Of a stretch of 64,000 nucleotides of DNA, positions 9,079-63,007 are shown one piece after another. Made by a program: the position numbers and the translations under genes. The notes under the pieces are model-generated. The model did not search any database, was not told where the DNA came from, and saw nothing but the letters and a program-made list of their open reading frames with translations. Within the stretch, counting starts at the first letter, position 1; each line of letters starts with the position of its first letter. Source of the DNA: Candidatus Micrarchaeia archaeon (GTDB lineage Archaea; Micrarchaeota; Micrarchaeia; Norongarragalinales; CAINOH01); contig JBAYMJ010000002.1 of assembly GCA_041663565.1 (NCBI GenBank), forward strand, positions 17,947 to 81,946. Reading direction: 5' to 3'.

Positions 9079-13002
<3,924 letters not shown>

Positions 13003-14769: not shown

Positions 14770-15222
14770 ATGCATATGACACACCGTGGCCAGGGCGCAT
14801 TCGAATACCTGCTGATGCTTGGCGGCGTAGTGCTAGTGGCGGTCATGGTCATCCTCATAATGCAGGGTTCTGCGCAGGGCGCGGACAACGCCCTGCTGCA
14901 GAACCAGAACCAATACAACAGCATAGTGGCCGGCGGGGTGAAGAACACGCTCACGAACGCGCCGCTTTCGTTCATACTCTCGTGCACCGCAGGCTCTGCC
15001 ACCACCTCGTACATAAGCAACAACTCGAACTGCGACGCCGCGTGCAAGGCGGTCGGCTACACCAACGGCACAACGGTGTGCTACACGAGCGGCTGCGCCG
15101 CATCCTGCAACGCCTGCACGACCATAACTTGCAACGGCATCGCGTGGAACGTCATCACGGGGTGCAGCGCGCCTGGAAGCTGCAACATGGACTCGTGCAA
15201 CTGCACGCGCACCGCCGGCTAG
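14770..15222 (+). CDS. Class III signal peptide (type IV pilin-like) protein with a Cys-rich head
   Basis: N-terminus MHMTHRG/QGAFEYLLMLGGVVLVAVMVIL (K/R-G cleavage context plus hydrophobic helix). The C-terminal 80 aa contain 14 Cys. Confidence 0.8.
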   Translation: MHMTHRGQGAFEYLLMLGGVVLVAVMVILIMQGSAQGADNALLQNQNQYNSIVAGGVKNTLTNAPLSFILSCTAGSATTSYISNNSNCDAACKAVGYTNGTTVCYTSGCAASCNACTTITCNGIAWNVITGCSAPGSCNMDSCNCTRTAG

Positions 15223-15280: not shown

Positions 15281-15850
15281 ATGAAAGGCCAGACGTCACT
15301 TGAGTACCTGCTGATACTTGCAGGGACCGTGATGCTCGTGCTCCTCGTCTCGACCATAGTTAACTCCGCCATGGCGCCCGGGCTGGAGAACGCGAGAAAC
15401 AACAGCACCGCCCAGCTTTGGAACGCGTCAAACGACTGGGGGACGCCGACAATCCCGTCAACCACTGCCACCCCGACGCCCACGGTGGGCCCGATTGAGT
15501 TCTTCTTCCAGGTGCAGGACAACGGCGGCAGCAGCGTCGCATTGTTCCTGCCTACGGGCGACGTCGTCCTCAAGACCGGCTGCTACGCGGGGGCTGCGGG
15601 AAGCTGCGCCAACCCGCCGGATGGGTCGTTTGCGGTGAGGGACCCTGCGGGCGTCTCGCACGCGTTCATCAACCCGTCCGGAAGCCTCTGCATCGAGGAC
15701 GCAAACTGCAACGGGAACGACGCGAGCTGCAACAGCCCGCCCGACGACTCGTTTACGACGCAGAACTCCGCAGGCACTACTGTATCATACATAAGCCCGG
15801 CTGGCGCGCTTTGCCTTACGGGCAGCCTTGTCCAGTATGGGAACCCCTAG
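15281..15850 (+). CDS. Class III signal peptide (pilin-like) protein with an internally repeated head
   Basis: MKG/QTSLEYLLILAGTVMLVLLV and a Thr/Pro linker. Two clear repeats of about 40 aa follow (C..SC..PPD.SF.....AG......I.P.G.LC), preceded by a weaker third copy. Confidence 0.8.
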   Translation: MKGQTSLEYLLILAGTVMLVLLVSTIVNSAMAPGLENARNNSTAQLWNASNDWGTPTIPSTTATPTPTVGPIEFFFQVQDNGGSSVALFLPTGDVVLKTGCYAGAAGSCANPPDGSFAVRDPAGVSHAFINPSGSLCIEDANCNGNDASCNSPPDDSFTTQNSAGTTVSYISPAGALCLTGSLVQYGNP

Positions 15851-15858
15851 ATGATTTG

Positions 15859-17421
15859 ATGGACCGCTTCAGGATTTCGTTGACTGTCGCACTTTTCCTG
15901 TGCCTGCTGCAAGGCGCCTGCGCGGGAAACCTCAGCGTGAAGAGCGGACAGCTCAACATGACAGGCAACCTCTACGTCGGGCCCAACTATCTCTTCGTCA
16001 ACTCAACTTCGGGACTCGTCGGAATCGGCACAACTGCACCGGGAACGATTCTGGAAATCTCGTCAACAAACAACCCGCTAGCCGCGGGGTCCGCATCTAT
16101 ACTCCTGGCCGGCGACGTCAACAAGGAGCGCGTGGCGATACGCTCAAGCCAGGCTGCGGTATTCATTGCGGCCGGCCACCGGGGCACCGTTACGTCCCCG
16201 TCGGCCTTGCTTGCGGGCGACGCGATGGGTTACTACCAGCTCGGGGGGTACACGGGCACGGGATACACGCGAGCTGCGTGGATTACCGGATATGCAGAAG
16301 AGAACTGGAACGCAACGAACTGGGGAGGCAACCTCATATTCTCCACCATATCCCCCGGGACCACGTCCATCACCGAGAAGGTGAGGATAACCGGTGCGGG
16401 CAACGTCGGCATCGGCACGACGAACCCGGCAGCAAAGCTCCATGTCAATGGGGACGTGCGCATTACTGGGGATTCGTTTGATTCCATATTCATAAACCAG
16501 GGCGGGGCGTTGTATATCAGCGCTCCAAGTTCAAAGAAGATATATTTCGACACGACTGGAGTCGGACCGAAGGTTTCCTTTGATATGACTAGTGGCAACG
16601 TCGGCATCGGGACAACCGCACCGGCATCAAAGCTTCAGGTCTCCGGAGGCGAAATCCAGACCGGGACCAGCGGCACTGCCTGCTCGGGTTCCAATGCCGG
16701 CGCGATTCGTTGGAGCGGCTCGCACTTCTACGGGTGCACCGGCAGCTTCTGGATCCAGCTGGACTCGGGCGCGTACTCGTCATGCAACGAGATAAAGGCA
16801 GCAAGCCCTGGAGCCGGTGACGGCGCGTACACCATCTATCCGTCGGGCGTTGCAATCAACGTCTATTGCGACATGACCACCAACGGCGGCGGGTGGACAA
16901 TCGTAACTGCGCAGTCCGGAGCGGGGCAATACGGCCTTGCCGACGACACGGAAGCGACTGGCAACCCGTTGTCATACCAGGCGTACAACCTGAACCTGAT
17001 TAAAAAGATGTACATAAGCTCGGTCTCGTCGGAGTCGCTGATAAAGCGCAGCACCGGCGCCTGGATAAAGGCAAGCCACGCGCTGTTCGACAACAACCTT
17101 GTGGGCATGGGCAACCAGCACCCCCATTGGCAAGTCACTGTGACCGCCAGCAATGGTGCAACTGCTGCAAACTGCCAGATGGGCTACTCGAACTTCTATA
17201 ATTCGAATGGCGGCGACTTCGGCATAACCACCTCGGGGGTCGTCTTCGACCACCACAACCCCAGCACGTATTACCACTTGAACGCCGGCTGCGCAAGCAT
17301 GTACTTTTACAATTATGGCACTACATACAACGTGAACACCGCCTTGGGAGATTGGCCGGTGACGAATGCCTGCGTTCCCAGCGGGACCGAACTGGGCAGC
17401 TGGTACGCCGCGATGAGATGA
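15859..17421 (+). CDS. Secreted stalk protein with a C-terminal fibrinogen-related-domain-like head (paralog 1)
   Basis: Leader [40 protein letters not shown] and [16 protein letters not shown] motifs, neck [24 protein letters not shown], then CNEIKAASPGAGDGAYTIYPSGVAINVYCDMTTNGGGWTIV. Start set by paralog alignment. Confidence 0.85.
   Translation: MDRFRISLTVALFLCLLQGACAGNLSVKSGQLNMTGNLYVGPNYLFVNSTSGLVGIGTTAPGTILEISSTNNPLAAGSASILLAGDVNKERVAIRSSQAAVFIAAGHRGTVTSPSALLAGDAMGYYQLGGYTGTGYTRAAWITGYAEENWNATNWGGNLIFSTISPGTTSITEKVRITGAGNVGIGTTNPAAKLHVNGDVRITGDSFDSIFINQGGALYISAPSSKKIYFDTTGVGPKVSFDMTSGNVGIGTTAPASKLQVSGGEIQTGTSGTACSGSNAGAIRWSGSHFYGCTGSFWIQLDSGAYSSCNEIKAASPGAGDGAYTIYPSGVAINVYCDMTTNGGGWTIVTAQSGAGQYGLADDTEATGNPLSYQAYNLNLIKKMYISSVSSESLIKRSTGAWIKASHALFDNNLVGMGNQHPHWQVTVTASNGATAANCQMGYSNFYNSNGGDFGITTSGVVFDHHNPSTYYHLNAGCASMYFYNYGTTYNVNTALGDWPVTNACVPSGTELGSWYAAMR
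16594..16640 (+). repeat. 47-nt cassette identical to 18132..18178 (mid-gene, paralog 1 vs paralog 2)
   Basis: Direct comparison: ggcaacgtcggcatcgggacaaccgcaccggcatcaaagcttcaggt is identical in both genes, while the flanks diverge. Confidence 0.9.
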
Positions 17422-17501
17422 TTGGAATCTCGGAACGTTGACTTTAAGGAGAATTGTTGCCGGACAAATGAAACGACTCTAGGAAAATGGACATGCGATT
17501 T

Positions 17502-18860
17502 ATGGACCGCTTCAGGATTTCATTGGCCGCCGCGCTTTTCCTGTGCCTAGTGCAGGCCGCGTGCGCGGGCAACCTAAGCGTGAAGAGCGGACAGCTCAAC
17601 ATGACTGGCAACCTCTACGTGGGCGCTTCTGGGTCCGCGCTCTTTGTAAACTCAACGTCGGGTTACGTTGGAATTGGGACGACGAACCCAATCCGCGCAT
17701 TGCATATCTATGGCAACCCAGTTGTCGAACTCATACTTGAGGATGGCGCGGCAAATGCCGACTACCGGAAATGGAATTTCGTTGTCAACGGCGGCGCGGG
17801 GTCGAACAGCAGCTTTTACCTCCGCCAGCTCAACGACGCTGGAACTGCTGGCGCAGTCCCGTTCATGGTCAGCGGCGCAGGCAACGTCGGCATAGGCGCC
17901 AGCCCAATCAGCAAGCTGGAAGTCGCCGCATTGAACAGTTCCGTGGCAATCGGCGGTTACCTGGGGAACCCGCCGACATACCAGACAGGAATCCAGTTCC
18001 TCAACTACGGGGTATATCACGTCGGCTTGCGCTACGACGGCCAGGGCAACCTGATTTATGAAAGTGCGGGAAACAGCGTAAACCCGATGCTGTGGTATAA
18101 TGGCCAGCCCGCCAACTTCCTAGTGAGGAACGGCAACGTCGGCATCGGGACAACCGCACCGGCATCAAAGCTTCAGGTTTCCGGTGGCGAAATCCAGACG
18201 GGAACAAGCGGAGCGTCCTGCACGAGCGCCAACACCGGTGCAATACGCTGGGATGGCTCGTATTTCCTCGGGTGCACCGGCTCCGGGTGGGCGCGACTGA
18301 GCTACGGCACGTATTCCGCCTGCAATGCCATCAAGGTCGCCACGCCAAGCGCGGCCAACGGCACGTATACGGTATACATCAACAACACGGCAACACAGGT
18401 CTACTGCGACATGACCTCAGATGGCGGCGGGTGGACGCTGATTGTCGGCATCGGCCCGGACAACAACCACGACACCGCAAGCGCAGTCACCCCGGAGAAC
18501 CTCGTCTCGGCAACAGGCAAGGGCAAGTTCAGCGACGCCTGGATAAACCTCCTGCGGACCGCCCCGGGGACAGAGGGGATAGTAAGGCTGAACTGCGGCA
18601 CCTCAGTTGATTATTTCGACTACAGGACAACCGCGTGGCAGGCCACGTATACCGCCAACCCGAACGGGGTCGGCTGGGACGTGTACACCCAGCCGTGGGG
18701 GACCGCGCCGTACAGCGGCGGAGGGGCGAGCTACCCGAACCAGCCCGGGCCGTGGGCGTACTCGGTATGGGGCCAGAACACGATTTATGGCTATAGCGGG
18801 TGGACCGGCTGCTACACCGGTTCCGCAACTGGCGGCCCCGGCACGGTTTGGATGAGATAA
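17502..18860 (+). CDS. Secreted stalk protein with a C-terminal fibrinogen-related-domain-like head (paralog 2)
   Basis: [94 protein letters not shown] and CNAIKVATPSAANGTYTVYINNTATQVYCDMTSDGGGWTLIV. In-frame upstream ATGs at 17487 and 17493 are possible alternatives. Confidence 0.85.
   Translation: MDRFRISLAAALFLCLVQAACAGNLSVKSGQLNMTGNLYVGASGSALFVNSTSGYVGIGTTNPIRALHIYGNPVVELILEDGAANADYRKWNFVVNGGAGSNSSFYLRQLNDAGTAGAVPFMVSGAGNVGIGASPISKLEVAALNSSVAIGGYLGNPPTYQTGIQFLNYGVYHVGLRYDGQGNLIYESAGNSVNPMLWYNGQPANFLVRNGNVGIGTTAPASKLQVSGGEIQTGTSGASCTSANTGAIRWDGSYFLGCTGSGWARLSYGTYSACNAIKVATPSAANGTYTVYINNTATQVYCDMTSDGGGWTLIVGIGPDNNHDTASAVTPENLVSATGKGKFSDAWINLLRTAPGTEGIVRLNCGTSVDYFDYRTTAWQATYTANPNGVGWDVYTQPWGTAPYSGGGASYPNQPGPWAYSVWGQNTIYGYSGWTGCYTGSATGGPGTVWMR
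17511..17569 (+). repeat. 59-nt 5' cassette identical to 18902..18960 (leader region, paralog 2 vs paralog 3)
   Basis: ttcaggatttcattggccgccgcgcttttcctgtgcctagtgcaggccgcgtgcgcggg is identical in both copies. Paralogs 1 and 4 carry diverged versions at 15859.. and 20357.. Confidence 0.9.
18132..18178 (+). repeat. 47-nt cassette identical to 16594..16640
   Basis: See the partner copy; verified base by base. Confidence 0.9.
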
Positions 18861-18892
18861 ATATAATGATGTTTTGAGCCAGAGATGATTTC

Positions 18893-20320
18893 GTGAACAG
18901 CTTCAGGATTTCATTGGCCGCCGCGCTTTTCCTGTGCCTAGTGCAGGCCGCGTGCGCGGGAAACCTCAGCGTGAAAAGCGGCCAGCTCAACATGACAGGA
19001 AACCTCTACGTCGGCGCATCGGGCAACGCACTTTTTGTCAATACCGCATCGGGACTTGTGGGCATCGGAACGACAAGCCCTTCGCAGAGGCTCGACGTGA
19101 CTGGAACGGTCAATGCGTACGCTTTCACGGTCAACGGCTCGGCCTTCAGCACCAGCCAGTGGACGACTGCGGGCTCTAACATATACTATTCCTCAGGCAA
19201 CGTCGGCATCGGCACGACGAACCCGGCAACGGTGTTGCACATCTCCGGCCCGAACGAGGGAACCTCGACGTACTACTCCCAACTGAGGGTCGATGGGACC
19301 GGAGCCTACCCTTGGAACATTGCAGGAATTTCGTTGAACCCCAACGGGGCAGTCCAATCCCACCTTCGTTTTCTCGAGAATGGCGTAGTCAAGTTCCAAA
19401 TACGATACAACAACGGAAACACGCAGGATAGCAAACTGAAATTTTACAGCTTCATCACAGGTACGGACATGGCGACGTTTGATGCGACAAGCGGCTACGT
19501 CGGCATCGGGACAACCAGCCCCGCTTCCAAACTGCAAGTCTCCGGTGGGGAAGTCCAGGTGGGAAACAGCGGCGCCTCGTGCACAAGCGCCAACGCGGGC
19601 GCAATCCGCTGGAGCGGCACGCACTTCTATGGTTGCACAGGCAGCGGCTGGGCGCAGCTGGACTCCGCGGTATACCCGTCGTGCGGCGCCATAAAGACTG
19701 CAAACCCGAGCCTTTCCGACGGGGTATACACGATATACCCTTCGGGCATCGCCATGCAGGTTTACTGCGACATGACCACGCTGGGAGGGGGGTGGACGCT
19801 CGTTCTTCTCAACAGCCAGTATTCCGTCCCTCCGAAGCCGACCTGGACAAACGTCACAACCGGGAACGTCATTACCGGCACGTTCGGCTCAACCCTTGAC
19901 AGCGCGTTCGACCAGTTCCTTGGCGTCGCATATTGGAACACGCTGGGAACGCAGATGCGGGTCGAGGCGGGCAGCTCGTCCGCGTCGATTTCGCACCGGG
20001 CGCGCTACAACTTCACGCTCAACTCGGCGAACAACTATGCCCTGACCATGACGAACGCAATCCTTGACATAGGCTCGACCTACCCGGGAATGGCCACGTA
20101 CCACGCTGCGGGCAATTATCAGCTCTCGACCTTTGACGCGGACCACGACGTGTACTCCGCAAACTGCGCCAATTCCTACGGAAACACCGCCTGGTGGTAT
20201 GGAGCCTGCTGGGATGGGAACTTCTGGGGCGGCGGAGAATCGGGAAGCCACCAGAACAAGCCATTCTGGACCGGCAGCAGCGCGGACTACTACGACTGGG
20301 GCGCAATCTGGATACGGTAA
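18893..20320 (+). CDS. Secreted stalk protein with a complete fibrinogen C-terminal-like domain (paralog 3)
   Basis: GTG start; leader [23 protein letters not shown]. FReD hallmarks [41 protein letters not shown] and the distal [37 protein letters not shown]. Confidence 0.88.
18902..18960 (+). repeat. 59-nt 5' cassette identical to 17511..17569
   Basis: See the partner copy; verified base by base. Confidence 0.9.
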
Positions 20321-20356
20321 ATTAAACAGCAGTTCATCTAAACTAGTAACGATATC

Positions 20357-21697
20357 ATGGACCGGTTCAGATTCTCATTGTCTGTCACTCTCTTCTTGTG
20401 CATCGTGCAGGCCTCTTGCGCGGGCAACCTCAGCGTGAAGAGCGGACAGCTCAACATGACAGGAAACCTCTACGTGGGTCCTGCCGGAAACGCGCTTTTT
20501 GTAAACTCCACGTCGGGACTTGTGGGCATCGGCACCGCAAGCCCCTCGGCACAACTGCACGTTGTGGGCAACGCAGTCATCACCGGCAGCATCGGAATCG
20601 GGACAACCAACTCCCTTGCGAAAGAACACATCCTTTTGGGGTCTGCAGGGACTACGCCAAACTTCACCATCGCACCTTCCTTGATTTTGGAGCATTCCGG
20701 GTACGACGGCCAACTGCAATTTTTAGCCCCGTCAACAAGGGCATCTTACATCATGTTCGGCGACGAGCGGAATTATGCCCGTGGAAGCATAGTCTACGAC
20801 CATCGCGCCGGTTCGGAAATGCTGGCGCTTTCCAGCCAGAACGGAAGCATAACAATACTTGCAGGAGGCAACGTCGGCATAGGAACGACGAGTCCGGCGT
20901 CAAAGCTGCAAGTCACGGGAGGCGAAATCCAAACTGGCAACAGCTCCGCAGCCTGCTCAAGCGCCAATGCAGGAGCAATCCGCTGGACGGGCGTGGTGTT
21001 CCAGGGGTGCACGGGCACGAACTGGACGACGTTCAGTTTCGGCGGGCAGGACGGGTCGACCCAGCAGCGGGCGGGCATAAGCTGCAAGGCGATAATCAAC
21101 GCCGGCTTCTCGAAGGGCAACGGCAACTATTGGGTCGACCCCGACGGCGGGGACACGGTCAACGCGTTCCAGGCATATTGCGACATGACAACGGACGGCG
21201 GAGGCTGGACGAAAGTCTATCACGGGACACCGGACCAGGCGTCCACGACGATTGCGTACATTACGGGGACCGCGCCCCTAGTCACCACGTCGTCGACGAT
21301 GATGTTCGCGTTCTTTGACGAGACTACGAACGCCACGTCAAGCGCGTGGAAGTTCCAGACGCCGTCCGCATTCACCACCAACACGCCGATGGCGAACGTC
21401 CAATGCGGGTACGTGACAATCACTGCCACGAGGATAAGCGACAGCCTGACGGTCAGCAACGTCCTCCGGTACGGGTATGGCAGCTTCGGCAGCAGGTGCG
21501 ACGAAGGATGCAGCAGCACCTGGGGGCAAATCTGCCTGAAAAGCACCTCGGCCCAGGGAACCGCCGGCGGGTACGCCGATTTCCCGATGTACACGTCTTT
21601 TGCGTGGGCGGGATACGACAATTGCGCTAGGTCTGATGAGACGTATTCTACTACGCAGTGCCCGACGACCAAGAGGTTCGTGATATTCGTAAGATGA
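20357..21697 (+). CDS. Secreted stalk protein with a C-terminal fibrinogen-related-domain-like head (paralog 4)
   Basis: [94 protein letters not shown] and CKAIINAGFSKGNGNYWVDPDGGDTVNAFQAYCDMTTDGGGWTKV. Confidence 0.82.
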   Translation: MDRFRFSLSVTLFLCIVQASCAGNLSVKSGQLNMTGNLYVGPAGNALFVNSTSGLVGIGTASPSAQLHVVGNAVITGSIGIGTTNSLAKEHILLGSAGTTPNFTIAPSLILEHSGYDGQLQFLAPSTRASYIMFGDERNYARGSIVYDHRAGSEMLALSSQNGSITILAGGNVGIGTTSPASKLQVTGGEIQTGNSSAACSSANAGAIRWTGVVFQGCTGTNWTTFSFGGQDGSTQQRAGISCKAIINAGFSKGNGNYWVDPDGGDTVNAFQAYCDMTTDGGGWTKVYHGTPDQASTTIAYITGTAPLVTTSSTMMFAFFDETTNATSSAWKFQTPSAFTTNTPMANVQCGYVTITATRISDSLTVSNVLRYGYGSFGSRCDEGCSSTWGQICLKSTSAQGTAGGYADFPMYTSFAWAGYDNCARSDETYSTTQCPTTKRFVIFVR

Positions 21698-21756: not shown

Positions 21757-21921
21757 ATGATGGAACGGGCGCAGACTTCGCTTGAATACCTGCTGATACT
21801 CGCGGGCGCAATAATGCTCGTCCTGCTGGTGGCGCAGGTGATCACCGGCGCGATGCTGCCCTACAACTCCGCAAACAACGCGGCTGTGGCGACGGTCTGG
21901 CCGACGGGAATGAACGGTTGA
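21757..21921 (+). CDS. Mini class III signal peptide (pilin-like) protein, 54 aa; absent from the supplied ORF track
   Basis: Hand translation gives MMERA/QTSLEYLLILAGAIMLVLLVAQVITGAMLPYNSANNAAVATVWPTGMNG, stop TGA at 21919-21921. The N-terminal motif matches the other pilin-like genes here. Confidence 0.7.
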   Translation: MMERAQTSLEYLLILAGAIMLVLLVAQVITGAMLPYNSANNAAVATVWPTGMNG

Positions 21922-22580: not shown

Positions 22581-22734
22581 TACTGTGGATTCACTTTGTT
22601 GGGTGGGTTGCAAGTAGCACTTGGACGGCGAATATAAACAAAAGCTGACGCGATTTCCGGTGAAGCCGCCGGAACCCCGTCCAACAAAGCTGCAGATGCA
22701 GAACCAATAAAACGCCGTGCGCGATTGCATTAAT

Positions 22735-24447
22735 ATGGCAATACGCGGCCAGGGCGCCTTCGAGTATCTTCTGCTGCTTGGCGGGACGGTTCTTGTCGCG
22801 ACCATAGTCCTTGTGATGACGCAGGGGTCGATCCAAAACGCGAACAACACCTACGGTGCGGCGTCAGGCAATTACGCAGATTTTGTAACGGGCAGCGTAA
22901 ACGACATCTTCGCAAACGGCTCGCTCACGCACGAGGCGCCGACGGGCTGCATATACGGCAACCCGGCCTGCGATGCAGGCTACTACTGCGACAACGGAAC
23001 CTGCAAACAGGCTAATGCACTGCTCAAAGGGTACGCGCTCGACCCGGCCGGAGTTCCGCTTCTTGGAGTGACAATCCACCTTGTCGGCGGCAATACCGCA
23101 GACGCGCTCACCAACGCGTCCGGGTATTACGAGATGGCCTTCGCAATCAACGGCTCGTCCGCGATGTACGCTGCCACTGCCGCAAGAAGCCCCGCAAACG
23201 TGCAAGCCGGTGCGACGGTCAACCTTACTGCCGGCTTTGCAACAATCCAGAAATTCACCTTGAGTTATAACCCCGCGTCGCTTTCCGGTTTCGTGCGCGA
23301 CCCGGCAGGCAACGGGATTGCGGGCGTCGCGCTTTCGTGCGGTTCCTATTCGGCTACGTCCGGGAGCGACGGTTCCTATGCCATAGGCAACGTGCCAATG
23401 GCTTCCGCAAGCACGACCAGTACCCTTGCGGGGTCGAAGACTCCGACTTTCGTTTCCAACTCAACGCCGGCGACGTTCAACGCGGGCGTAACCAACTCGC
23501 AGAACTTGCAAATGTCCTATTCCAACGCGAATGTTTCAGGGTACGTACGTGACGTGTCAAGCGCAGGCGTAGCCGGCGCTGCGGTAAGCTGCGGCGGCGT
23601 GTCGACGACTACCGCAAGTGACGGCGCGTATTCGATAAGCGGCCTTTTGATGTCCGCTGCTTCTTCTTCGTGCACCCTCGCGGCCTCCAAGTCCGGTTAC
23701 ACTTCTGCAAGCGCAACAGCAACTCTTACTGCAGGCGCAATCACTTCGGGCCAGAACCTTGCCATCAATCTCATAGTCGTTGGCGCCTGCGGTTCAAGCA
23801 ACGGCGCGGCTTTCTATTCCGCCCCGTCCTCGGGCCTTTGCACTGCTGGAAGCGCTTCCGCATTGTCGGGCGCAGGGCCTTGGTCGTGGACTTGTGCCGG
23901 TACGTATGGCGGCTCAACCGCAAGCTGTTATGCAAACCTCATCGTGAACGGCGCGTGCGGCGCAGCTGCAACAAGCTATGCCTATTCTGCCGGCGGCTTC
24001 TCCGGCGCATTGTGCAATGCCGGGACGGCAAGCCCGAGCAGCCCATCGTTTCCTGCCGCGGGAGGGTCAACTAGTTGGGCCTGCCTTGGCTTGAATGGCG
24101 GAAGCGGCGCTTCCTGTTCGGCATCAAGGGCAAACCACCCCTGTGCAGTTGCAGGAGGAACGATATACGGGTCGTTCTGCCGTTTTAGCGGTTCGTCTTG
24201 CCCTGGCGGATGGACACAATATGGCAGCTGGTCAACGACAACGGCAGGACACAGCTCTTCTTGCGGCTGGGTAAGTTCGCCTTGGCCGGAACCGAGCTGC
24301 TGCAGCACCGGCTCCCACGACTTTTCCAATACCGCAGTGGAATCCTGCGGGTATTGGCAGTATTGTTGCACTTCGTGGACTTGCCCGACCAACTGTTGGC
24401 AGACCGCATCTGCAATCGTGACGGAAGTCGGGTGTTACCAGCCTTGA
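22735..24447 (+). CDS. Large class III signal peptide (pilin-like) adhesin with CarboxypepD_reg-like repeats and Cys-rich modules
   Basis: MAIRG/QGAFEYLLLLGGTVLVATIVLV; three G(Y/F)VRD..G.G(I/V)AGA.(L/V)SCG....T.SDG.Y.I repeats; two GACG...LC..G...........W.C.G..GG...SC modules; a Cys/Trp-rich terminal domain. Confidence 0.82.
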   Translation: MAIRGQGAFEYLLLLGGTVLVATIVLVMTQGSIQNANNTYGAASGNYADFVTGSVNDIFANGSLTHEAPTGCIYGNPACDAGYYCDNGTCKQANALLKGYALDPAGVPLLGVTIHLVGGNTADALTNASGYYEMAFAINGSSAMYAATAARSPANVQAGATVNLTAGFATIQKFTLSYNPASLSGFVRDPAGNGIAGVALSCGSYSATSGSDGSYAIGNVPMASASTTSTLAGSKTPTFVSNSTPATFNAGVTNSQNLQMSYSNANVSGYVRDVSSAGVAGAAVSCGGVSTTTASDGAYSISGLLMSAASSSCTLAASKSGYTSASATATLTAGAITSGQNLAINLIVVGACGSSNGAAFYSAPSSGLCTAGSASALSGAGPWSWTCAGTYGGSTASCYANLIVNGACGAAATSYAYSAGGFSGALCNAGTASPSSPSFPAAGGSTSWACLGLNGGSGASCSASRANHPCAVAGGTIYGSFCRFSGSSCPGGWTQYGSWSTTTAGHSSSCGWVSSPWPEPSCCSTGSHDFSNTAVESCGYWQYCCTSWTCPTNCWQTASAIVTEVGCYQP

Positions 24448-42612: not shown

Positions 42613-42733
42613 CCGGTCAGCGGTCATAGGAGAGGGGTCACGCCCGTTCCCTTTTCGAACACGGAAGCTAAGCCCTCTTACGACGTTGCTTGTACTGCCC
42701 GCATGGGTGGGAACGCATGTTTCCGCTGCCACT
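42613..42733 (+). rRNA. rrf: 5S ribosomal RNA, not linked to 16S/23S genes in this window
   Basis: GGTCAGCGGTCATAGGAGAGGGGTCACGCCCGTTCCCTTTTCGAACACGGAAGCTAAGCCCTC...GTACTGCCC...GGGAAC...CCGCTGCC resembles archaeal 5S (helix I pairing, the loop C TTCGAAC..GGAAGTTAAGC pattern, GTACTG). The ends are approximate to within a few nt. Confidence 0.85.
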
Positions 42734-53975: not shown

Positions 53976-54158
53976 TCAGTGGGACACGTTGCTCATGTTC
54001 TGGAGGAAGTCGACGAAGCTGTGCGTCTGGTCGGTTATGGCGTTGTTGGCCTGGCCTGCGGAGCCTTGGACTATCATTATGACTATTGCCGCTATGAGAA
54101 CGCTGCCGCCCAGTATCAGGAGGTATTCGAATGCGCCCTGTCCGCGGAACCTTGCCAT
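53976..54158 (-). CDS. Small class III signal peptide (pilin-like) protein, 60 aa
   Basis: MARFRG/QGAFEYLLILGGSVLIAAIVIMIVQGSAGQANN... from ATG 54156-54158. The upstream part of ORF 53976..54239 is not needed. Confidence 0.72.
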   Translation of the reverse strand: MARFRGQGAFEYLLILGGSVLIAAIVIMIVQGSAGQANNAITDQTHSFVDFLQNMSNVSH

Positions 54159-56308: not shown

Positions 56309-56422
56309 TGGGCCTGGTGGGATTTGAACCCACGAACTTCCAGTTCGCCTAGAACCATAGTCCCTGAGGGGCTATGGCGTCATATAAGACTGGCACTCTG
56401 GACCAAGCTGAGTTACAGGCCC
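56309..56422 (-). tRNA. tRNA-Ile with anticodon UAU and a 37-nt intron at the canonical 37/38 position
   Basis: GGGCCTG-TA-ACTC-AGCTTGGTCCA-GAGT-G-CCAGT-CTTATA[TGACGCCATAGCCCCTCAGGGACTATGGTTCTAGGCG]A-ACTGG-AAGTTC-GTGGG-TTCAAAT-CCCAC-CAGGCCC-A. The intron holds a CCATAG/CTATGG hairpin. The variable region parses as 6 nt, which is atypical. Confidence 0.62.
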
Positions 56423-61720: not shown

Positions 61721-63007
61721 CTACTCTGCGGGGCAGTTGTACGCGACCTTGATTAGGTACGAGTTCAGGACGTTGTTGCTTGCGTCCAGGAAAGTCACGT
61801 CCGTGAACGCGGTCGGCAGGTACGTGTTGATGGTCGAACAGGAGCTCCCGACCGACTTGGTGGTTATGGTGGCGTCCTTGATGCAGTTCCTGCTCGTCGG
61901 GTCGTAAATGGGGTGGTCGGTCGCGCAATAGATGCAGGTGTTCTCGGCGGTGTTGTACTGTATGAACGTCTCGCCCGAGCCGGCTGCGTTGCAGCGCGTG
62001 GTCGCATAGCAGACGTGGTTCGTGGAGTCGTATGACGGGTAGCCTGCGTGGTTGCAGCTATAGCAGTAAGTGCCGTCATCGCTATACCCGTTCAGGCAGC
62101 AGTACGAGCCCGAAGATGCACAGTACATGCCGCTAGAGGTGCAATAATAGTAATTCGAATTATAGTTATACAGCCCGCAAGTCACCCCGGAACTGGTCGA
62201 CGTGGTAATCGAATAGTGCCCGGTGACATTGTTGCTGGGGTCGTTGTTGGCCGCCCTGGTGACCCTCGCAACCGGGTCAGCTCCGATTACCATCTTTGCT
62301 GGCGGGCTGTAGCACGCGGTAATCTTCACCCCGCATCCGGATTTCGGAAGCGAGATTGGTATGGTGTTGAAGGCATAATTGACAATCGGCGAACTGTAGT
62401 CGATGACTCCCTGCAGGGGCATGCCGACATTCAGGGTCGAGTTGAAGAGCACGGTGGTGTTTCCGCCCGAACTTCCCGCTGCATCCACGTACGCCTTGTT
62501 CGCCGCGTCGGTGTCGTTGATTGGCGCGGCGAGGCCCGTCAGGACGTTGCCGGAAGCGTTGACCGTGTTGTTGAACCTGGTGACGCCCGAAACGTACACG
62601 TCATTGCCGAAAGTCGCGTTGCCTACCACGTTCAGTCCGCGCGAAATGTTGGCCGCCCCGCCTATGATCGCGTCGCCATCGACGTTCAGACCGCCTGAAA
62701 GGTTCGTTGCGCCGCCGACCTTCACGCCGCCGTTGACCTCGAGCTTGGCCTGCGGGTCGGTTGTCCCTATGCCCACGTTTCCGGGCACGCCGGAGTACTG
62801 GTTGCTTCCGACGATTATCCAGTCGCCGTCATCGGCGCCGGTCCCGCTTGAGAGGTAGTTTTGCAGGCGGGTGGAATATTCGGACGAAATCACCGACTCG
62901 GACGCCGAGTTTAGGTTGGCGTTCACGACCACCATCACTATTGCCGAAAGCAGCACGCCCCCGGCTATCAACAACAAATATTCCAAAGCAGTCTGTCCAC
63001 GCGACAC
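61721..63007 (-). CDS. Class III signal peptide (pilin-like) protein fused to a tail-fibre-like stalk and a Cys/Tyr-rich head
   Basis: GTG start; [47 protein letters not shown] is the same stalk motif as the FReD paralogs. LTGLAAPINDTDAANKAYVD follows, and the C-terminal region is rich in Cys and Tyr. Confidence 0.8.
   Translation of the reverse strand: MSRGQTALEYLLLIAGGVLLSAIVMVVVNANLNSASESVISSEYSTRLQNYLSSGTGADDGDWIIVGSNQYSGVPGNVGIGTTDPQAKLEVNGGVKVGGATNLSGGLNVDGDAIIGGAANISRGLNVVGNATFGNDVYVSGVTRFNNTVNASGNVLTGLAAPINDTDAANKAYVDAAGSSGGNTTVLFNSTLNVGMPLQGVIDYSSPIVNYAFNTIPISLPKSGCGVKITACYSPPAKMVIGADPVARVTRAANNDPSNNVTGHYSITTSTSSGVTCGLYNYNSNYYYCTSSGMYCASSGSYCCLNGYSDDGTYCYSCNHAGYPSYDSTNHVCYATTRCNAAGSGETFIQYNTAENTCIYCATDHPIYDPTSRNCIKDATITTKSVGSSCSTINTYLPTAFTDVTFLDASNNVLNSYLIKVAYNCPAE

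Follow-up and report, generated by a model that had tools for sequence, protein, structure and literature searches.

Among described surface systems, those closest to the genes reported here are the MAT fibres of Bdellovibrio, the only structurally characterised bacterial prey-recognition fibres. These are trimeric, surface-located and prey-binding, and combine a conserved N-domain with swappable tips that bind prey glycans; in the NS74 type, the tip substitutes for the S74 chaperone (Caulton et al. 2024, PMC10769870). An interplay with type IV pili is raised in the same paper; neither fibrinogen-like tips nor archaea are mentioned in it or in its supplements, from which the word 'fibrinogen' is absent (PMC10769870). 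Here we describe four adjacent same-strand genes, P1–P4 (15859-21697, forward strand), of a Candidatus Micrarchaeia archaeon, which lie within a 64-kb stretch of contig JBAYMJ010000002.1 (hereafter the window, to which all positions refer) and whose products join a MAT-type stalk to heads resembling fibrinogen-related domains (FReDs). With a probability of roughly 0.6, we read them as exported MAT-type surface fibres, presumably trimeric, with FReD-like tips that recognise partner or host cells or surfaces. MAT-type fibres and the prokaryotic GGGWT domains, which are common and annotated, are already known. As far as we could find, archaeal fibres of MAT type that end in FReD-like tips are undescribed, as are the pilin-flanked variable slot in which the genes lie, the occurrence of common head types on archaeal and bacterial pilins at 66-71% identity, and a chimera of two head types joined at the GGGWT motif.

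Architecture of the P1–P4 fibres

The array comprises P1 (15859..17421, 520 aa), P2 (17502..18860, 452 aa; an alternative start at 17487 is used by NCBI), P3 (18893..20320, 475 aa, GTG start) and P4 (20357..21697, 446 aa), all on the forward strand. In the alignment, the four products display the same order of parts, namely a Sec-type leader, a 19-residue N-module, a run of stalk units, a Cys-bracketed neck and a C-terminal head, and every motif by which a first-pass annotation of this DNA had defined four tandem secreted proteins (leader, stalk motif, neck and YCDMT..GGGWT head) was present. The leader (15859-15924 in P1, 17502-17567 in P2, 18893-18958 in P3 and 20357-20422 in P4) has 22 residues of the form M[DN][RS]FR[IF]SL..LFLC..Q..CA, then G, and is followed by the N-module (15925-15981, 17568-17624, 18959-19015 and 20423-20479, respectively). 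The stalk (15982-16680, 17625-18218, 19016-19579 and 20480-20953) contains three G[NYLS][VI]GIG units in each protein, with nine copies visible in the DNA, and leads to a neck (16681-16752, 18219-18290, 19580-19651 and 20954-21025) with the consensus C[ST][GS][SA]N[AT]GAIRW.G..F.GCTG..W. The head (16783-17418, 18321-18857, 19682-20317 and 21083-21694) opens with C..I[KI]...YCDMT..GGGWT and closes with a hydrophobic strand and an Arg; in P1 it includes YCDMTTNGGGWT (16864-16899, forward strand). Given that paralogue DNA identity is only 65-80% across the leader and neck regions, the four genes are old duplicates and neither an assembly artefact nor the product of recent duplication. The G+C of the cluster is that of its surroundings.

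Stalk and relation to MAT fibres

The P1 stalk (residues 23-300) matched four solved Bdellovibrio MAT fibres, namely Bd1334 (8OML, E-value 3.1e-15), Bd2133 (8OND, 5.1e-12), Bd2439 (8OL4, 8.8e-10) and Bd3182 (8OJN, 1.7e-5), the last over the final repeat and neck, while the P3 stalk gave a weaker match (8OND, Bd2133, 0.0024). All four proteins also matched PHROG tail-fibre families (best 2.6e-19; PHROG 9942 and 18345), and the original description of the stalk as tail-fibre-like is thus borne out on both counts. Since the stalks match MAT fibres and no S74 chaperone domain (PF13884) was found in P1–P4 by domain scan, we regard the four proteins as short, non-S74, MAT-type fibres.

The likeness is closest to the NS74 subgroup of Bdellovibrio bacteriovorus and extends to a signal peptide, predicted in P1–P4, a conserved N element, here a much shorter one, the GNVGIGT-type beta-helix stalk, an interchangeable C-terminal tip and a repertoire of several paralogues. 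As in the MAT fibres, the C-terminal tip is the variable part, here in the form of four differing bodies that move independently, as seen in the chimeric relative P0048 (below). The archaeal fibres differ in their host, in their size (446-520 aa versus about 600-1000), in having FReD-superfamily tips, a type absent from the MAT tips described so far, and in being encoded among pilin genes. S74 phage tail fibres (PF13884) have the same stalk repeats (PHROG 9942 and 18345), and a related Micrarchaeon encodes an S74-ended fibre with a leader and N-module similar to those of P1–P4. Unlike the phage fibres, P1–P4 are without S74 and start with a Sec leader, and the context of their genes is cellular, not viral.

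Fibrinogen-related heads

Scored against Pfam PF00147 Fibrinogen_C (cut-off 22 bits), the heads reached 27.8 (P1), 24.4 (P2), 59.9 (P3) and 23.0 bits (P4), and against NCBIfam NF040941 GGGWT_bact (cut-off 30 bits) they reached 61.1, 55.2, 63.9 and 62.9 bits, respectively. All four therefore pass both profiles and fall within the fibrinogen-related superfamily. Coverage of the 221 PF00147 positions varies from 14-201 in P3 and 13-151 in P1 to 13-46 in P2 and 5-46 in P4, so that the P2 and P4 matches are confined to the A subdomain and that of P1 is partial. The first-pass annotation had assigned FReD heads to all four proteins, which stands for membership of the superfamily and for P3, the sole canonical FReD among them by sequence and predicted fold, but P1, P2 and P4 are FReD-like only in an A subdomain of ~55 residues.

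Among sequences in the PDB, the P3 head matched ficolin-3 (7e-11, query residues 264-455) and tachylectin-5A (3e-8), with tenascin-R and MFAP4 also matched between these values. In its AlphaFold2 model the block-mean confidence (pLDDT) is mostly 80-97, with two blocks at 62-75, and a Foldseek search with this model retrieved FGL1 (6.5e-13), with FGL1, ficolins and tachylectin-5A all at probability 1.0 and target-normalised TM-scores of 0.71-0.77. The earlier claim that P3 keeps the distal half of the fold is therefore upheld. A distal segment of 24 residues aligns with STIDKDHDTHETHCAQTY..WWYDRC of tachylectin-5A. As read from the sequence, P3 keeps FDADHD (the DxDxD Ca2+ motif) and NCANSY..WWYGAC (the distal/pocket disulfide), as in ficolin-3 and tachylectin-5A, and retains the Tyr of tachylectin-5A, but has Trp and Ala where the pocket of tachylectin-5A has His220 and Arg218; at the Ca2+ motif region P1 shows FDHHN..GC, and P2 and P4 have no recognisable motif. 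Compared with the animal FReD lectins (ficolins, tachylectin-5A, FIBCD1 and the tenascin/angiopoietin globes), P3 possesses the full A+B+P domain at 22-26% identity, including the DxDxD motif, the NC...WWY..C region and the final hydrophobic-R strand, and as in ficolins it ends a stalk that is presumably trimeric. The stalk in P1–P4 is a beta-helix, however, rather than collagen or a coiled coil, and the other three heads keep the A subdomain only.

For the A subdomains of P1 and P2 the best PDB matches were XEEL or intelectin (2e-10 and 6.5e-8), the X-type lectins. A profile built from 22 sequences of the P1-head family retrieved nothing from the PDB past the A subdomain, and the four head-family profiles with this subdomain trimmed (clean head alignments) showed no mutual similarity (E 0.06-0.46). 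The P4 head, which has 8 Cys, was modelled with a pLDDT of 85 and a pTM of 0.86, and its top Foldseek matches were XEEL, intelectin-1, fibrinogen beta, FIBCD1 and a collagen C-propeptide, all of the FReD superfamily. The model points to a divergent FReD/intelectin-like fold, its highest query-normalised TM-score (0.47) being to intelectin-1, and X-type lectins are likewise divergent FReD-like folds; the similarity nevertheless stops at the A subdomain in sequence, no counterpart of the intelectin Ca2+/diol site was identified, and all TM-scores are <0.5. P4 also scored 32.1 bits on the collagen C-propeptide profile (PF01410 COLFI, cut-off 26.2 bits), over positions 25-70 of 233 only, which are equivalent to the A subdomain, with Foldseek TM-scores to collagen C-propeptides of 0.26-0.30; the alignment contains no Gly-X-Y region in any of P1–P4. 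The array thus presents one conserved subdomain with four different bodies, of which that of P3 is ficolin-like and that of P4, as modelled, divergent FReD/intelectin-like.

Leader and N-module

The leader comprises an n-region, a 14-residue hydrophobic core and AxA, and is of class I (Sec) type; PF04021, the archaeal type IV pilin profile, was not matched by any of P1–P4 in the domain scan. The conserved leader Cys that had been pointed out before is present, but it lies upstream of the predicted AxA cleavage site and is therefore probably absent from the mature protein. A lipobox reading of this Cys was ruled out by the Gln at position -3 and by a related leader in another Micrarchaeon (L001, below), which ends in FAGA with GS after the cut and has no Cys near the cleavage site.

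The first 19 residues of the mature protein are identical in P1–P4, with about 30 further conserved residues after them. Across all paralogue pairs the nonsynonymous divergence (dN) of the N-module is 0 while the synonymous divergence (dS) is 0.4-1.0, which identifies purifying selection as the source of the identity and rules out recent gene conversion. Identity in the face of such synonymous divergence points to a constrained interaction common to the four proteins, and suggests that the N-module docks the fibre to the cell surface. No confirmed relative of the N-module was recovered from the GTDB species genomes with the patterns VKSGQLNM and Q[AG][AS]CAGNLS. The segment after the leader had also been described as rich in sequons; we found 4-8 sequons per protein compared with 4.9-7.5 in shuffled sequences, and thus no protein-wide enrichment, with conservation only at N24, N33 and N48/50.

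Genomic context

The assignment of the 89-kb contig to Candidatus Micrarchaeia by NCBI is matched by the content of the window, which outside the surface-protein genes consists of archaeal housekeeping genes, including RFC subunits, an intein-bearing CDC48, PTH2, NurA, SRP54, Trm5 and DUF63, and the presumed archaeal host is thereby supported. The fibre genes belong to a same-strand cluster (pilinA, pilinB, P1–P4 and a mini-pilin) with gaps of 8-80 nt. The first gene, pilinA (14770..15222, forward strand), has a 150-aa product in which an archaeal class III (type IV pilin-like) signal peptide precedes a head rich in Cys (PF04021 26.9 bits, cut-off 23.7), and is followed by pilinB (15281..15850, forward strand; 189 aa, class III signal peptide, PF04021 23.7 bits), which ends 8 nt before P1. 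The cluster is closed by the mini-pilin (21757..21921, forward strand), a gene between P4 and PTH2 that is shorter than usual ORF length filters; its 54-aa product, with a class III signal peptide (MMERAQTSLEYLLILAGAIMLVLLV...), scored below the cut-off (PF04021 21.3 bits). Just past PTH2 lies pilinC (22717..24447, forward strand), whose 576-aa product has a class III signal peptide and, in addition to three CarboxypepD_reg domains, a C-terminus very rich in Cys (28 Cys). PF04021 thus supports the class III assignment of the neighbours at 14770, 15281 and 22717. A further protein with a class III signal peptide is encoded at 61721-63007 on the reverse strand.

A syntenic contig of a relative (L004) carries flanking proteins that are overall 75-96% identical to those of the window, including topoisomerase (93%), CDC48 (94-96%), NurA (78%), PTH2 (86%) and CTP synthase (96%). 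Its NurA/PTH2 slot is occupied by a single gene for a 277-aa class III pilin with a FReD head (P0002), the head of which is 71% identical to that of P3. The first 67 residues of pilinA are 70% identical to the N-terminus of P0002, with a different head, and pilinC has no full-length counterpart in L004, where only its first ~78 residues match. Given a fibre cluster at this slot in one genome and a lone pilin-FReD gene in the other, the NurA/PTH2 slot is a variable surface-protein site, at which a P3-type head is pilin-borne in L004 and fibre-borne in the window. A diversity-generating retroelement was ruled out as the source of head variation, as the window contains no template-like repeat of head segments, only the paralogue repeats; no reverse transcriptase was found among the window ORFs scanned.

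Several other features of the window were noted. A 90-nt inverted repeat (14784-14873 versus 54058-54147, 74% complementary) connects the pilinA signal-peptide coding region with a site near 54.1 kb, possibly a further class III signal-peptide gene, on the reverse strand. The CDC48/VCP gene (9085-13002, forward strand) contains an intein with a LAGLIDADG homing-endonuclease domain; the CDC48 of L004 is intein-free (714 aa) and matches residues 1-256 and 828-1305 of the window protein at 94-96%. A 114-nt tRNA identified by Rfam at 56309-56422 (reverse strand) was unreported by ARAGORN and, given its length, probably contains an intron. A lone 5S rRNA gene lies at 42616-42731 (forward strand), with no 16S or 23S rRNA gene nearby within the window.

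Head exchange among scaffolds

Relatives of all four head types were found on other scaffolds. At 47-71% identity, the P1–P4 head types occur on the archaeal pilins P0002, P0004, P0125 and P0156, as well as on the bacterial type IV pilins P0122, P0123, P0151 and P0158. The P1 head shares 64-65% identity with the heads of two proteins, one archaeal and pilin-like, the other a bacterial pilin, and its type has 102 representatives at E<1e-30, carried by lipoproteins and giant proteins as well as by pilins of archaea and of bacteria. For P2, the identity is 66% to the head of P0151, a type IV pilin protein that is by name from Paceibacterota, a lineage of the candidate phyla radiation (CPR). For P4, identities are 66-67% to the heads of P0122 and P0123 (345 aa, with a bacterial N_methyl pilin N-terminus) and 47% to a pilin-like protein of the archaeon GW2011_AR5. 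The gene for one of these two proteins shares a bacterial locus with FtsZ and FtsX and lies within a tandem array of pilins that have Laminin_G_3 heads.

In the bacterial locus L007 (2473-8048), six type IV pilin genes stand in tandem; five products have Laminin_G_3 heads and one a P4-type FReD-like head, making it a pilin-based counterpart of the P1–P4 fibre array. P0126, from a eukaryotic transcriptome assembly, has a head of P4 type that is 48% identical and keeps the ...FTIFVR end; this sequence is either contamination or a eukaryotic member of the P4 head type.

Exchange is also visible within the fibre family itself. In the relative P0048, the stalk is 74% and the A subdomain 68% P4-like, the body of the head is 86% P2-like, the junction between the two being the GGGWT motif, and the N-terminus is class III-type. 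P0048 is encoded in an array of a related Micrarchaeon (L001, 3398-11671) that comprises five tandem surface-protein genes, at least three of them for MAT-like fibres, with tips of Gly_rich_2 plus S74, Gly_rich_2, and FReD. Of the five N-termini, four are class III-type, as called from an RGQ..EYLL motif read by eye and Pfam matches below cut-off, and one is a Sec-type leader with an N-module resembling that of the window. From these comparisons, the heads appear to be exchangeable cassettes.

Distribution and annotation

The motif CDM[TS]T[DN]GGG was found in at least 600 stretches of the GTDB species genomes, 509 of which were confirmed, in Myxococcota, Bdellovibrio, Bacteriovorax, Bacteroidota, Auribacterota and Patescibacteria, with archaeal matches in Nanoarchaeota, Aenigmatarchaeota, Pacearchaeota and one bin labelled Methanosarcinales. 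At all four archaeal motif loci the head is carried on a pilin-like N-terminus, without a stalk. The motif occurs in predators (Myxococcota, Bdellovibrio and Bacteriovorax) and in episymbiont-type lineages (Patescibacteria and DPANN), which is a statement of occurrence and not of statistical enrichment. The combination of stalk, neck and head was present in only five of the 194 motif-bearing proteins retrieved (P1–P4 and P0048), and this architecture is therefore rare, while the domain itself is common.

In NCBI, P1–P4 are named 'fibrinogen-like YCDxxxxGGGW domain-containing protein' (MFA6329163.1-MFA6329166.1), a name they have in common with their NF040941 relatives, which bear the same head types but display them on pilin, giant or lipoprotein scaffolds and include pilin-FReD fusions of DPANN archaea and CPR bacteria. 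With a curated model (NF040941), four proteins already named and 509 confirmed motif stretches, the premise of the first-pass annotation that FReDs are only sporadic in prokaryotes does not hold. Its proposal of a new archaeal surface lectin or adhesin retains an adhesin or lectin as the best reading, putative as this is, but overstated the novelty of a domain that is common and annotated. We found no account of the fibre architecture or of head swapping in the literature searched, on fibrinogen domains in archaea, DPANN, Micrarchaeota or Patescibacteria (with pili) and on MAT fibres outside Bdellovibrio; the only relevant text was one that mentions in passing that giant surface proteins of a patescibacterium have fibrinogen C domains. 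The question of whether the architecture belongs to a widespread archaeal family with a known character has a divided answer, in that the domain is widespread and annotated, yet no characterisation was found.

Two further occurrences are of interest with regard to cell contact. In Minisyncoccus archaeiphilus PMX.108, a cultured CPR parasite of a methanogen, two loci (L048, 3255-6845; L053, 3240-6980) encode candidate host-recognition pilins; these type IV pilin-like proteins have 1196 and 1246 aa, respectively, and both contain a pair of FReD-like GGGW domains. In Bdellovibrio bacteriovorus strain kdesi (L036, 3300-6203), two tandem secreted proteins of 474 and 488 aa each contain two YCDMTTxGGGWT domains, with no GIG-type stalk motif seen on inspection of the sequences by eye; given these proteins, FReD-like modules occur in Bdellovibrio outside MAT fibres as well.

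Proposed function and alternatives

The architecture, homologies, purifying selection, synteny and mosaicism described above are what lead us to view P1–P4 as surface fibres, and the array is probably an adhesion kit for partner cells. In this model the class I (Sec) leader is predicted to be cut after AxA, and the N-module would then dock the fibre to one common cell-surface element, possibly pili assembled from the neighbouring pilins. Three GxVGIGT units would make up a short beta-helical stalk, joined to the head by the disulfide-bracketed neck as an adaptor. The head would probably cap the trimer and nucleate its folding, replacing the S74 chaperone, and would bind the ligand, most likely a glycan or other surface structure of a partner or host cell. 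With three unrelated bodies (P1, P2 and P4) on the same YCDxxxxGGGW subdomain, in addition to the ficolin-like P3, the array would offer four specificities on one chassis.

Several observations weigh against this reading. The PDB matches of the P1, P2 and P4 heads end after the first 45-55 residues, the A subdomain, and on sequence grounds a lectin pocket is not demonstrable for these three; structural comparison, which had been proposed as a check alongside the PF00147 profile, was convincing for P3, but for P4 the superfamily matches come with TM-scores of only 0.36-0.47 and root-mean-square deviations of 8-11 Å. The stalks, at about 150-250 aa, are far shorter than those of Bdellovibrio MAT fibres, and the conserved N part (19 + about 30 residues) is much shorter than their ~130-aa beta-rich N-domain. 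The case for trimerisation is one of homology, because the stalk was modelled as a monomer and with low confidence (pLDDT <55). P1–P4 contain no membrane anchor, C-terminal transmembrane segment, sortase-like signal or known archaeal surface-attachment motif, and retention at the cell is accordingly assumed. Finally, any host of this freshwater-type Micrarchaeon is putative.

The absence of an anchor, together with the Sec leader and the fact that no anchoring partner was found, would suit released soluble lectins or agglutinins that cross-link cells or biofilm matrix or capture polysaccharide, in the manner of ficolins and tachylectins but outside a host. Animal FReD lectins are soluble oligomers and provide the precedent. 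We consider this unlikely, as the invariant N-module (dN 0) suggests conserved docking, relatives carry homologous heads directly behind pilin N-termini, a form of filament display, and the stalk is homologous to that of surface-located MAT fibres. A variant of our preferred surface-fibre interpretation, in which the proteins are accessory tip or side adhesins plugged through the N-module into a type IV-like pilus made of the flanking pilins, seems a little less probable again. It draws on the position of the fibre genes, which have same-strand class III signal-peptide genes on either side, on the L001 array, where MAT-like fibres appear to carry class III N-termini (by the by-eye motif and sub-cut-off matches given above) and would represent Rosetta-stone fusions, on the head placed directly on a pilin in the syntenic L004, and on the interplay with type IV pili raised for MAT fibres (PMC10769870). 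Against this, the ORFs scanned in the 64-kb window included neither a pilus assembly ATPase nor a platform gene, we found no precedent for a trimeric fibre docking to a pilus, and co-location could merely mark a hot spot for surface-protein genes.

The heads could instead serve mainly as folding or trimerisation caps, comparable to collagen C-propeptides or foldons, on fibres that are structural parts of the envelope without a specific ligand. COLFI nucleates collagen trimers, and P4 exceeds its cut-off (32.1 versus 26.2 bits); the tips of NS74-type MAT fibres also replace the S74 chaperone (PMC10769870). However, the COLFI match is limited to positions 25-70 of 233, folding needs alone hardly explain four unrelated bodies on one chassis, the same heads occur on monomeric pilins, and P3 retains the Ca2+ motif and pocket disulfide, which together make such a role improbable. 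Least probable is that an archaeal virus, integrated or satellite, is the source of P1–P4 and that they encode its receptor-binding tail fibres, even with stalks that match PHROG tail-fibre families and two phage proteins with fibrinogen-like domains in BFVD. We rejected a prophage origin on the basis of the Sec signal peptides of P1–P4, flanking housekeeping genes that are syntenic with L004, the lack of any capsid, terminase, portal or integrase gene among the window ORFs scanned, a G+C matching the surroundings and the old divergence of the paralogue DNA.

Implications

The means by which DPANN archaea and CPR bacteria locate partner cells and stay attached to them are largely unexplained, and the locus supplies concrete candidates in the form of four small and presumably expressible heads, one with a putative ficolin-like Ca2+ pocket, on a chassis related to the MAT fibres. 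The pilin-flanked variable slot, the head identities of 66-71% and the GGGWT chimera suggest that, in these communities, recognition modules are passed from scaffold to scaffold and even across the boundary between archaea and bacteria. A broader reading, which we hold tentatively and at somewhat less than even odds, is that the ultra-small, episymbiont-type prokaryotes (DPANN and CPR) share one horizontally exchanged pool of FReD-like heads. Under this reading, the YCDMTTDGGGWT subdomain would be a universal recombination joint for swapping binding bodies, archaeal pilins, bacterial type IV pilins and MAT-type fibres would be the three display scaffolds, and the four-gene array would be a host-range or partner-range cassette set. 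The finding corrects the idea of fibrinogen-related domains as essentially an animal invention and, if the shared-pool reading is true, the fibrinogen fold, known from animal innate immunity, would have served prokaryotes as a cell-cell recognition module since deep in their history.

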